From the IMG/VR virus record IMGVR_UViG_2526164601_000042: DNA of 39,549 bases. The stretch is one strand, 5' to 3'. The stretch comes from a virus. Lineage: Duplodnaviria > Heunggongvirae > Uroviricota > Caudoviricetes. Below are positions 36,001 through 39,549 of the stretch, piece after piece. The position numbers are program-made. How positions within the stretch are numbered: position 1 is the first letter of the stretch; the number at the start of each line of letters is the position of its first letter.

Positions 36001-39000
36001 TATCTCCATCGTTTTCATGATCATCTTGAACCTTATGAAATAGGGAGACAAAGATATTACCACATTGAATCCATTTTACTCCGCTTTCATCACCCCGAAT
36101 GACATTGCCAGATGTGTTGCTAGAAATAATTGCATTTCTAGACACAGCATATTCTGCAATCATTTTTGCAATGAAGTTTTTATCCTTTTGATCCTCCAAC
36201 ACAGCATCATCATGTATTAATCTTTTAATTCTTCTACAAGGCTTACTGTCTTTAATATAGGCTATTATTTCATCTCTTGTGAGAGCTTTATTACCATTAT
36301 CATTTAAGTTCGGTAATACAACGTCTTCCCAATAACTTTGGACATCTTCATTATCGTAGTCAATGATCAAGCTGTTGATATCCAGAGCACCTTTGAGAGT
36401 CGATGATATCTGCATCCAAACCGTTTCTAAATTCTCTCTAGTATATATTACAATCATATTTAAATGATCGGAGTCTTTCAAATCTTGTAATAGTTTAAGT
36501 GTTTTATCAGGTGCATTATTATCAAGATGATAATCTACAATAATAAGATCTGATTTTCTAATCCGATCCACATCGAAATTAACAGAACCATTGTCAACAT
36601 CACAAATCATATTTTTAGATTGAAAAAAGCTCTCAAGAGTAGCGGCTCGTTTAGATGAGTCAATTTTGTTGTAGTCTAAATCAACTTCGTTATTCAACGC
36701 CCTGATTGATTCAGAATACGTCAGAAAATCGTCATCAATCATGACAACGGAACGAATTGCATTTTCGCAGAAAGTTTTCTGGACAAGAGAATTATAATTT
36801 GCCACTGTCATATTAGAACTCCACTCCATTGAACTGGATCACAAAATTAGCGCCATCTTTTATTAAATAGTTATCGCCTTCATCAGGTTCTGAATACCAT
36901 ATTTTATGATGTGCAACAGCAAGGTTTTCTCGACATAGATACAGACCTACCCCATGTCCATTTGCTCTTTTGCTATAAAATAGTTCAAATAGTCGCGGGA
37001 TATCATCGGTATCAATTGCCGGACCAGAATTTGCTATGATAACCAAAGAATTCACAAAACCAATCTTTATGAGCCTATTATTTGACAGACTGACCCAATA
37101 CATTGCATTGTTGATAATATTAGTAAAAACAGGATAGATCCTTGATGGTATATCTGTTATTGCGATTTGCTTAAACTCTTCACTAAATTCAATAGTTATT
37201 CGTTGCCGTTCGAAACGCTCCCCAAAGAACTTCAGGACATAATCCATGATATTTTTTCCAGTTATTCTCTGCCTGGATTGATAACCTGATATTTTCAAAG
37301 GTGATAAGAAACGTATTTGTTGAGTAAGCGATCTGTGAGCATTTAACGCCAATGAAAAACCAGGGTGTTCTTTTACAGAAGTAGGAAGAGAGTTTAGTCC
37401 TCTGGTTACCATAGAATCCATTTCTTCAAGTTCATGAGATATTATCTCAACACTAATACCTAACTGTGCAAGCGCGTTTAAACTTTTAGCTTTTTCTTCA
37501 AAATATGAGCGTTCTTCTTCAGATAATGAGAATGCTGAATCTAAGTTTATACCTTCAAATAATCTATCGAGACCTTTTATTATTGATTGATATTTGAAAG
37601 TTAGGGTATCAACTGACTCAACATATAAACTATCGAGCAAATTAAACACATTTTCAATTTGTGAATCATTATCTATTGAATCAACAACTGATATAGTTTT
37701 AGCATAATAATCACTTCGATCAACCTTTATTTCATCGGCCCATTTTTTTAAAAGAGAATGTATCTTCTCCTCTATCGTGTTATTAAACTTAGTTAGTTTA
37801 GAATTAATAATACCTTGATTTTTTTCAAGGTGATTTTTCGCTGACAATGAAGGCTCAAGTTTATTTAATTCAGAATCAAGTTTATTAATTGCTAACTTCA
37901 TTTGTAGAATATACGCAGAGAACTCATTAAATTTATCTCTGTAGTCTCTATATTTCTCTTCATACATTCCAAGTTTTGGAGGTTTGATAGGCGTTTTAAT
38001 TTCACTGCGCAACGCATCTAAGTTTGTAAGATCACTGTCTATAATTTTAAGATAGTTTAAATCTAACGAACCATCAGTTTTATCAAGCTTAGTTTTCAGC
38101 CTTTTAACAGCCTCCAAGGAAGCATCAAGAACTGGTGTCTGATTCTTCAAAGCTTCTGAAAAACTTTTTTGTGTTGATTTTCGAGCTTGTTGTTGAGCAG
38201 ATTTTCTTAACTCTTTTTCACGCTTAACTTGTTCTAAAAGCTCTTTACGGTCATCAGAACGTGAACCAAAAAATCTATCAGCAAGTTCAGTTAACAAATT
38301 AGATATAATAGTTTTCAGTTCTCTTGCAGCCTGGTTTCTTATGAATCCCTCTCTCCCCGACTTATCTTTCAGCTCTTTATTACTGGATTGAGTAATTCCA
38401 ATATAACCAAAAATCCTTCTATTAGACCAATAATATCGCCCTGCATTCCATGAACGTCTTTCTTCTATCTGGAAGAAATCATTATCTACTCGACCATAAG
38501 GTAATACTCTCAAGCTATCCCTAAAAATCATTAGTCCTGCATACTTTTTGGCCTTAAGATCAAAGTGGGAATGTTCACGTTCAGTATGTGATGTATTTTG
38601 TGAAAGGAATTCAAACGTTCCTATCTGAAGCTCAAATGGGCCGACCCCTGCGTGATCCTACCCACGTAATATGGACACAGGCCTAAGCGAGGTTCTTGTT
38701 TTCAAATTGTTCCGGACTGAGGCCGCCACACAAACTGTGCCGCCGCCACCGATTGTAATCACATTCGATATAATTAAATACCGTTGCCCGCATTATTTCC
38801 CGGCTGATAAAGTGTTCTCCATGGATACATTCCACTTTCAGCGAATGAAAGAAGCTTTCCACGCAGGCATTATCGTAGCAGCAACCTTTTGCGCTCATAC
38901 TTCCACGCAGATTATGCCGCTTCAGTTGCGCCTGATAATCTGCTGAACAGTACTGGCCTCCACGGTCCGTGTGAACGATAACGTTCCGGGGCCTCTTACG

Positions 39001-39549
39001 CCGCCACAGCGCCATCTGCAGGGCATCGCAGGCCAGTTGCGCCGTCATGCGTGGCGACATTGACCAGCCAATAACGGCACGTGACCACAGGTCAATGACC
39101 ACTGCCAGATACAGCCAGCCTTCATCTGTACGTAAGTACGTGATGTCTCCTGCCCACTTCTGGTTCGGGCCACTGGCGTAAAAATCCTGCTCCAACAGAT
39201 TTTCTGACACAGGCAGACCGTGTGCGCGGTAGCTGACCGGGCTGAACTTCCGGGAGGCCTTTGCCCTCAGTCCCTGACGGCGCAGGCTTGCCGCCACGGT
39301 TTTTACGTTAAAGGGGTAACCCTGAGCACGCAGTTCATCCGTCAGGCGTGGGGCACCGTAACGCTGTTTTGACCGGGTAAAAGCCGCGAGGACAACGCTG
39401 TCGCAGTGTTGGCGGAACTGCTGACGCGTGCTTATCCTTGTCCGCCGCTGACACCACGTATACCAGCCGCTGCGGGCCACCCGGAGCACGCGGCACATTG
39501 CTTTGATGCTGAACTCAGCCTGATGTTTTTCAATAAAGACATACTTCAT

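Follow-up and report, generated by a model that had tools for sequence, protein, structure and literature searches.

A HEF_HK-family kinase-like gene truncated by an IS3-bounded deletion in a large Escherichia coli lineage

The window analyzed here, a stretch of 39,549 nucleotides from IMG/VR virus record IMGVR_UViG_2526164601_000042, carries at its right-hand end part of a genomic island integrated at the tmRNA gene ssrA (698 to 1060) and cut short by a copy of IS3 (Table 1). The island begins at a repeat of the last 45 bp of ssrA, and no right-hand copy of this repeat survives. A P2-like prophage lies between ssrA and the repeat at 33100 to 33144, which makes the island the second element in a tandem array. 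The integrase gene is identical to the one in the intact islands L003 and L004, where the product has Arm-DNA-bind_3, Phage_int_M, and Phage_integrase domains. It is followed by a gene for a small hydrophobic protein; in the window only, this open reading frame (ORF) is broken by two to three single-base deletions in 8-nt homopolymers (T8 runs) within 530 nt, losses that look like sequencing errors. The two remaining genes of the island lie next to each other on the minus strand. One encodes a protein with a Response_reg_2 receiver domain and an output region of about 400 aa with no recognized fold, and the other is the tail of a kinase gene that runs up to the IS3 terminus. In two complete E. 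coli genomes, the gene order was ssrA, integrase, small ORF, Response_reg_2 gene, kinase tail, IS3, a 3' fragment of ygaQ (ygaQ'), and glaH.

Table 1. Features of the island and of the IS3 junction in the window, with the flanking genes of the intact operon
Feature	Position	Strand	Details
45-bp ssrA 3'-end repeat, left attachment site of the island	33100..33144	+	100% identical to window 1016-1060
Tyrosine integrase of the ssrA island	33268..34539	+	ORF; RefSeq 'integrase domain-containing protein'
Small hydrophobic protein gene of the island	34578..34992	+	138 aa; ORF intact in L001 and L003
Response_reg_2 partner gene	35063..36811	-	582 aa, full length; begins 1 nt after the kinase stop codon
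Kinase tail, 572-aa ORF	36813..38531	-	Residues 417-988 of the intact protein
Startless in-frame remnant	38532..38652	-	Third base of codon 376 plus codons 377-416 of 988
IS3, 3' 897 bp (right terminal repeat and orfB)	38653..39549	-	Terminal sequence TGATCCTACCCACGTAATATGGACACAGGCCTAAGCGAG; 288-aa orfB
C5 cytosine DNA methyltransferase gene	First gene of intact operon		402 aa; PF00145, E = 6.6e-59; end overlaps the kinase start
Response_reg_2 protein gene	Third gene of intact operon		582 aa; starts 1 nt after the kinase stop codon

The window ends within the insertion element. The right end of IS3 (TGATCCTACCC...) starts at 38653 on the plus strand, and orfB (288 aa) fills 38683 to 39549, with orfA outside the window. 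Most of the interval given in the original prediction, 38531 to 39549, is IS3 itself, and the kinase gene lies on the minus strand. The same junction was present in a complete genome, where the whole element (1,258 bp) occupies positions 6745 to 8002 of locus L001, with L001 8002 corresponding to window 38653. Its imperfect terminal inverted repeats begin with TG: the left end, TGATCTTACCCAGCAATAGTGGACACGCGGCTAAGTGAG, lies at L001 6745, and the reverse-complemented right end stops at L001 8002. RefSeq labels this same copy 'IS3-like element IS3 family transposase, programmed frameshift' and gives it a joined CDS, which, together with the orfB found in the window, matches the programmed -1 frameshift between orfA and orfB that defines IS3. 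In complete genomes, the element is flanked by ...GTTATCT on the ygaQ side and CGCAGGG... on the kinase side. The 3-bp target-site duplication that the original prediction had proposed as a check is thus absent, TCT facing CGC, and this places the IS3 copy at a deletion or recombination junction, with no bearing on the identity of the element.

The reading frame of the kinase-like gene is open from the Met at 38531 to the end of IS3 at 38653, as had been noted from the sequence, and the peptide quoted at that time is exactly the translation of window 38412 to 38690 on the minus strand. This translation reads ...SILRG*DHAGVGPFELQIGTFEFLSQNTSHTEREHSHFDLKAKKYAGLMIFRDSL..., in which the sole stop is a TAG within the IS3 terminal repeat. 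No ATG, GTG, or TTG occurs among the 41 codons upstream of the Met, so that the ORF counted from its first start codon is the 572-aa one. The DNA is A+T-rich, and the chance of a 41-codon open stretch was 3% from base composition and 8% from shuffles; the 41 open codons alone are only suggestive. The truncation is secure because the upstream residues match intact homologues and not because the frame is open. The 40 gene-derived residues upstream of the Met were identical at 40 of 40 positions to P0006, an intact protein of 988 aa, over its residues 377 to 416. When the 613-aa frame was searched against proteins, 797 relatives were returned, among which the intact ones were 988 to 994 aa long with an N-terminal PF13589 (HATPase_c_3) domain, and five 988-aa proteins from Salmonella, Klebsiella, and Serratia were 99% identical across all 613 residues. 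The IS-free alleles of these three genera extend past the Met, and the frame upstream of it is conserved; the proposal of a 5' truncation would have been contradicted by homologues that begin at this Met with an unconserved frame before it.

The breakpoint was then located at the DNA level. Between the ssrA repeat and position 38653, the window and the intact island L003 share 98.96% identity. Homology ends at L003 11127, and the boundary at 11127/11128, where homology to the intact gene begins, corresponds to nt 1128 of that gene. Read base by base, the gene-derived DNA begins at the third base of codon 376, and the offset between the two frames is exactly 376 codons. In the window, 1,127 nt (375 codons and 2 nt) are gone from the start of the kinase gene; this stretch encodes the N-terminal HATPase_c_3 domain, of the paraMORC-type GHKL class. 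The ORF at 36813 to 38531 is the surviving 3' 62% of a gene of 2,967 nt and 988 codons.

In the intact protein P0006, HATPase_c_3 spans residues 28 to 137, HEF_HK spans 772 to 830, and HATPase_c spans 878 to 969. Its layout runs from HATPase_c_3 through a beta-rich middle domain and a long coiled coil to the HEF_HK phospho-acceptor domain and HATPase_c, and from its sequence the product would be a soluble fusion of a paraMORC-type GHKL ATPase with a histidine kinase. The tail retains the end of the beta-rich middle domain, the long coiled coil, the HEF_HK domain (DHp-like, with the motif SHELEE), and HATPase_c. In the 613-aa frame, Pfam detected HEF_HK (PF19191) at 26.2 bits against a cut-off of 24.1, at residues 397 to 455, and HATPase_c (PF02518) at 44.7 bits against a cut-off of 26.4. 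The HATPase_c profile matched solved CA domains of sensor kinases, such as 3a0t (E = 4e-12), and in NCBIfam the CA domain matched ordinary sensor kinases at a sub-threshold level only. An AF2 model of the full-length kinase had a pLDDT of 59.8, with the N terminus below 50, and served for secondary structure only; a fold comparison from this model was dropped given its poor quality.

In the intact islands L003 to L005, the kinase gene is the middle one of a tight three-gene operon, between the methyltransferase gene and the Response_reg_2 gene listed in Table 1. A relaxase and further recombinases are encoded upstream of this operon, which makes the element a mobilizable island at ssrA. No XRE or HNH gene was called in the intact island allele; in a more distant Salmonella allele (L006, 83%), a gene for an HNH_2/ScoMcrA-type nuclease lies two genes downstream.

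The original prediction attributed the truncation to an insertion of IS3 and placed the lost 5' part either beyond the element or among deleted DNA. The first of these possibilities is that of a simple insertion, in which IS3 splits the gene and the missing 5' end follows, with the methylase gene, directly on the other side of the element, outside the window. The window stops inside IS3, and its sequence alone permits this arrangement. However, the identical junction in complete genomes leads from the 1,258-bp IS3 to the 3' part of ygaQ, an alpha-amylase-family pseudogene, and then to glaH. The unequal TCT and CGC flanks also argue against it, no complete E. coli genome contained this allele's 5' part or methylase gene, and we regard a simple insertion as extremely improbable. 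A 5' truncation exactly at the IS3 end stands, and the better fit is an IS3-bounded deletion; the lost part was deleted and does not lie beyond IS3, where the 3' half of ygaQ is found.

Of 5,426 complete E. coli genomes, 561 had the kinase tail allele, in each case on the chromosome. For the 5' part, we searched the same genomes with a query that joined the methylase gene to the initial 1.4 kb of the intact kinase gene, and none of the 5,426 matched it beyond the 300 nt downstream of the breakpoint. The match began at the same base in all matches listed. A shared breakpoint indicates one event inherited by all carriers and points to a single ancestral deletion behind them. The right junction was found in 483 and the left junction in 506 of the complete genomes, and these similar counts leave no larger set with IS3 in ygaQ alone. 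The breakpoint is also a clean marker for this large E. coli lineage.

The extent of the deletion was apparent when an IS3-bearing strain was set against a genome in which ygaQ is complete. The strain retains the 3'-terminal 1,108 nt of ygaQ but not its 5' 1,145 nt, and it also lacks ileY (tRNA-Ile), the region of ypjA, and all sequence from there to the breakpoint in the kinase gene. Besides the methylase gene, some 20 kb or more of island and chromosome were deleted. In an ancestor of about 10% of sequenced E. coli, an IS3-associated deletion brought about all of these losses in one event. It removed the 1,127 nt at the 5' end of the kinase gene, its methylase partner, and all of the ssrA island beyond it, including the right attachment site, and ran on through chromosomal DNA into the middle of ygaQ, leaving one IS3 at the junction without a target duplication.

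The most likely mechanism for such a deletion is recombination between two directly repeated IS3 copies, with an IS3-promoted adjacent deletion as the alternative. IS3-family elements transpose by a copy-out, paste-in route, and it is on account of this general knowledge that we prefer recombination between two copies. A search for an intermediate, with ygaQ whole except for IS3 at this site, gave 0 of the 5,426 complete E. coli genomes. We also considered that the deletion came first, as an IS-independent fusion of ygaQ' to the kinase tail, and that IS3 inserted later at the scar. Such fusions without IS3 do occur in two metagenome-derived contigs, L009 and L010, from public read sets. However, the two junctions without IS3 are not alike: measured against the IS3-bearing form, L009 has CG in place of 6 nt of ygaQ', and L010 has lost 23 nt plus 1 nt. 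Given that the scars differ and that extra bases are missing, the two contigs represent independent, imprecise losses of IS3 and are derived forms, not ancestors. A later simple insertion would, moreover, have left a 3-bp duplication, and none is present, which makes this order of events very improbable. The event is an ordinary case of IS-associated pseudogenization.

What the deletion has left is a remnant that lacks both its N-terminal ATPase domain, a putative sensor or motor, and its own upstream region. The suggestion that the module is probably inactivated in this strain was a reasonable one: the gene has lost its N-terminal GHKL domain and the region of its native promoter, the methylase gene is gone as well, and loss of function is what we infer from this. 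The Met that would start the 572-aa ORF, Met417 of the intact protein, falls within a block of invariant residues (G415, L416, F419, R420, D421, and onward), and we tentatively place it in a conserved domain and a predicted strand and not at a domain border. The IS3 transposase genes read toward the kinase remnant. Between IS3 orfB and the ORF, no terminator-like site was predicted, and promoter-like sites were no more frequent than chance; the only visible route of transcription may be read-through from IS3. Given that IS3 reads into the remnant without a predicted terminator and that an AGGA lies 3 nt before the ATG, a 572-aa product is possible. With the ATPase domain and the upstream region lost, a start inside a conserved domain, and transcription from IS3 only, the most likely outcome would be a nonfunctional relic, and we consider loss of function very probable.

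We weighed this reading against a functional short kinase, in which a hybrid promoter or read-through from IS3 drives expression of the 572-aa product, which works with the receiver as an orphan two-component-like pair and is kept by purifying selection. The kinase core and the full receiver gene, 1 nt apart, are both intact. The invariant S781-H782-E783-L784-E785 of the H-box (SHELEE), in which an acidic residue follows the core His as in the HEF_HK family, is present in the remnant, the N and G boxes are unchanged, and all invariant residues of the receiver protein are preserved. IS3 faces into the gene with no terminator between, and a published 'group 2' architecture, with HEF_HK and HATPase_c and without HATPase_c_3, accounts for 34 of 222 family members (PMC8011034). 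The tail is also barely damaged across carriers: among 60 carriers sampled evenly down the ranking, it was exactly 1,719 nt long in 58 and disrupted in 2, once by an IS1 insertion and once by a split.

Several observations point the other way. The start lies within a conserved domain rather than at a domain boundary, the methylase partner is lost, and at least some of the 572-aa homologues are start mis-calls in open 994-aa frames. The receiver gene was broken in about a fifth of the sampled carriers (about 11 of 58, sampled in the same way) by IS3-family and ISVsa5 insertions and by +2-nt and -2-nt forms, probably through about four independent events, and the pattern of disruption fits slow neutral decay. 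Relative to the intact allele, the kinase tail has 5 nonsynonymous and 4 synonymous codon differences, none at an invariant column, versus 2 nonsynonymous and 12 synonymous differences in the receiver gene, which leans weakly toward relaxation of the tail. Taken with these points, a functional short kinase appears unlikely. We give slightly less credence still to the idea that the kinase core and the Response_reg_2 protein, transcribed from IS3, have been kept as a rewired orphan signaling or defense pair in a large E. coli lineage. If true, this would account for the undamaged state of the kinase tail in about 97% of the sampled carriers. The relic reading remains the one that we adopt.

The truncated gene has consequences for annotation. 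RefSeq presents the 572-aa protein, although a remnant, as a normal CDS for an ordinary 'ATP-binding protein', in a cluster of more than 2,000 member sequences. We considered that short homologues could be independent truncations or a natural short form. However, the 572-aa 'ATP-binding proteins' at 83% identity in Salmonella sit in uninterrupted 994-aa frames at the two loci that were read, so that their short starts are mis-called, and both of these explanations were set aside for these two loci. In other species, start calls appear to have been drawn to the same Met by the very abundant truncated protein of E. coli. Truncations and start mis-calls together make part of the published 'group 2' short architecture doubtful, and this class of HEF_HK and HATPase_c proteins without an N-terminal ATPase may partly be an artifact. 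The value of our analysis lies chiefly in annotation and in work on this candidate defense family, whose module of methylase, GHKL-kinase, and receiver is best studied with the intact Salmonella, Klebsiella, or Serratia alleles and not with the common E. coli copy.

In summary, the junction resembles known IS-mediated deletions in E. coli (IS3-, IS1-, and IS5-bounded), in which a single IS joins two unrelated sequences without a target duplication and everything between the two former sites is gone. We see no difference in kind, and this particular IS3 deletion does not appear in the literature searched. [quoted passage not shown] Both of these Pfam domains are present in adjacent genes of the window. 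The intact allele has the predominant 'group 1' architecture, HATPase_c_3 with HEF_HK and HATPase_c, and a C5 cytosine methylase gene upstream, the most frequent neighbor in the family. In contrast, the window copy is without HATPase_c_3 and the methylase gene through an IS3-bounded deletion and not as a natural short architecture.

Matches to PADLOC models were insignificant, and the module is thus not among the defense systems catalogued in the 2023 set. Nor is this module the subject of the V. cholerae WASA paper, the MADS preprint, or DefensePredictor. The closest tested analogue that we found is Ambrosia, an anti-phage system of Pseudomonas composed of an XRE regulator, an N6-adenine methylase, a HATPase kinase, a REC protein with a wHTH, and a type IV HNH nuclease (bioRxiv 10.1101/2025.09.30.679545). 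All five genes are experimentally required for phage defense, and the RM-like genes are induced on infection (bioRxiv 10.1101/2025.09.30.679545); the preprint does not cite PF19191 or PF19192. Compared by gene set, the two are alike in that one cluster combines a HATPase-type sensor kinase and a receiver with a DNA methylase. The methylase is of the N6-adenine type in Ambrosia and of the C5 type in the intact island allele. Ambrosia also includes an XRE regulator and an HNH nuclease, neither of which has a counterpart in the island allele, and the output of its receiver is a winged helix, where the island protein has a region of no recognized fold. The five-gene set of Ambrosia is thus only partly matched by the intact island, and the window copy retains the kinase tail and the receiver gene alone.

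The 572-aa homologue P0082 and its relatives in Pectobacterium, Klebsiella, Yersinia, and Morganella have been assigned the start Met of the truncated E. coli protein, which corresponds to the tail of the intact kinase. At both Salmonella enterica loci read (L006 and L007), a 994-aa kinase homologue frame is open throughout, and the 572-aa annotation leaves 1.25 kb of "noncoding" DNA 3' of the methylase gene. Judging from these reading frames, the 572-aa starts of the homologues are probably mis-calls that spread from WP_000577254.1, the abundant remnant protein of E. coli. Separately, we observed imprecise IS3 excision in two contigs, L009 and L010, in which antisense ygaQ' is now joined directly to the kinase tail. 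The new ORFs at these junctions encode 614 aa and 618 aa, starting MR-AGVGPF... and MHGGFP-AGVGPF..., respectively, and in L010 the receiver gene, too, is shortened, reaching 454 aa where the contig ends.

The receiver gene was also damaged in some E. coli carriers of the window's allele. A subgroup of these carriers, represented by six sampled records, has a form of the gene with 2 additional nucleotides (1,751 nt), and other sampled carriers have IS3-family or ISVsa5 insertions within the gene. P0129, a cluster of "partial" 453-aa receiver proteins, contains 1,605 sequences, which suggests that one IS insertion in this gene is a break point in many draft assemblies. The AF2 model of the receiver output region was confident, and comparison of this model to solved structures gave no match. 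The invariant residues of the region include W247, N252, K260, H403-N406, C436, C441-D442, Q552, R554, Y557, R571, and D575.

Features of the window and of the compared loci
Feature	Location	Strand	Remarks
tmRNA gene	window 698-1060		
Putative P2-like prophage, ~32 kb	window 1184-33000		inserted at ssrA; ORF sizes and order only
45-bp repeat of tmRNA 3' end	window 33100-33144		
Small hydrophobic protein gene, 138 aa	window 34578-34992	+	broken in window
Response_reg_2 protein, output region	window 35063-36811 (gene)	-	residues about 190-582
994-aa kinase homologue frame	L006 3993-6983		Salmonella enterica GCA_009468465.1
994-aa kinase homologue frame	L007 2247-5237		Salmonella enterica GCA_009382895.1
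Gene for a protein combining a ScoMcrA-type DNA-binding domain with an HNH_2 nuclease domain	L006 9775-10650		
IS3-less junction	L009 4990-5010		Logan contig from SRR8209178
IS3-less junction	L010 5010-5020		Logan contig from SRR29912304

The small hydrophobic protein gene of the island is whole in the complete E. coli genome locus (L001) and in the intact island (L003). In the window copy, T8 runs near 34624 and near 34737 have each lost one nucleotide, and a third homopolymer loss (A8 to A7) lies just downstream of the gene, near 35033. Given that all three losses fall within 530 nt, they suggest sequencing error rather than biology.

A putative prophage lies upstream of the kinase island, with both in tandem at ssrA. 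Its ORFs include one of tape-measure size (1,025 aa) a pair resembling terminase and portal (588 aa and 347 aa), and one of replication size (804 aa), then a 210-aa ORF and after it an integrase-sized ORF (338 aa). From ORF sizes and order, we infer both the prophage and its P2-like type. Two 4.83-Mb records, NZ_CP026085.1 (the source of L001) and NZ_CM135829.1, are labeled "DH5alpha" in RefSeq, yet the ssrA-island remnant is present in both. It occupies the place of the CP4-57 prophage, which we take to be the occupant of ssrA in K-12 strains, and the strain label is probably wrong.

With respect to Ambrosia, the anti-phage system of Pseudomonas, the island allele akin to that of the window differs in being without an HNH_2/ScoMcrA-type gene, whereas the Salmonella operon (83% allele) at L006 has an HNH_2 gene, two genes downstream of the receiver gene, that is reminiscent of Ambrosia's type IV HNH nuclease.
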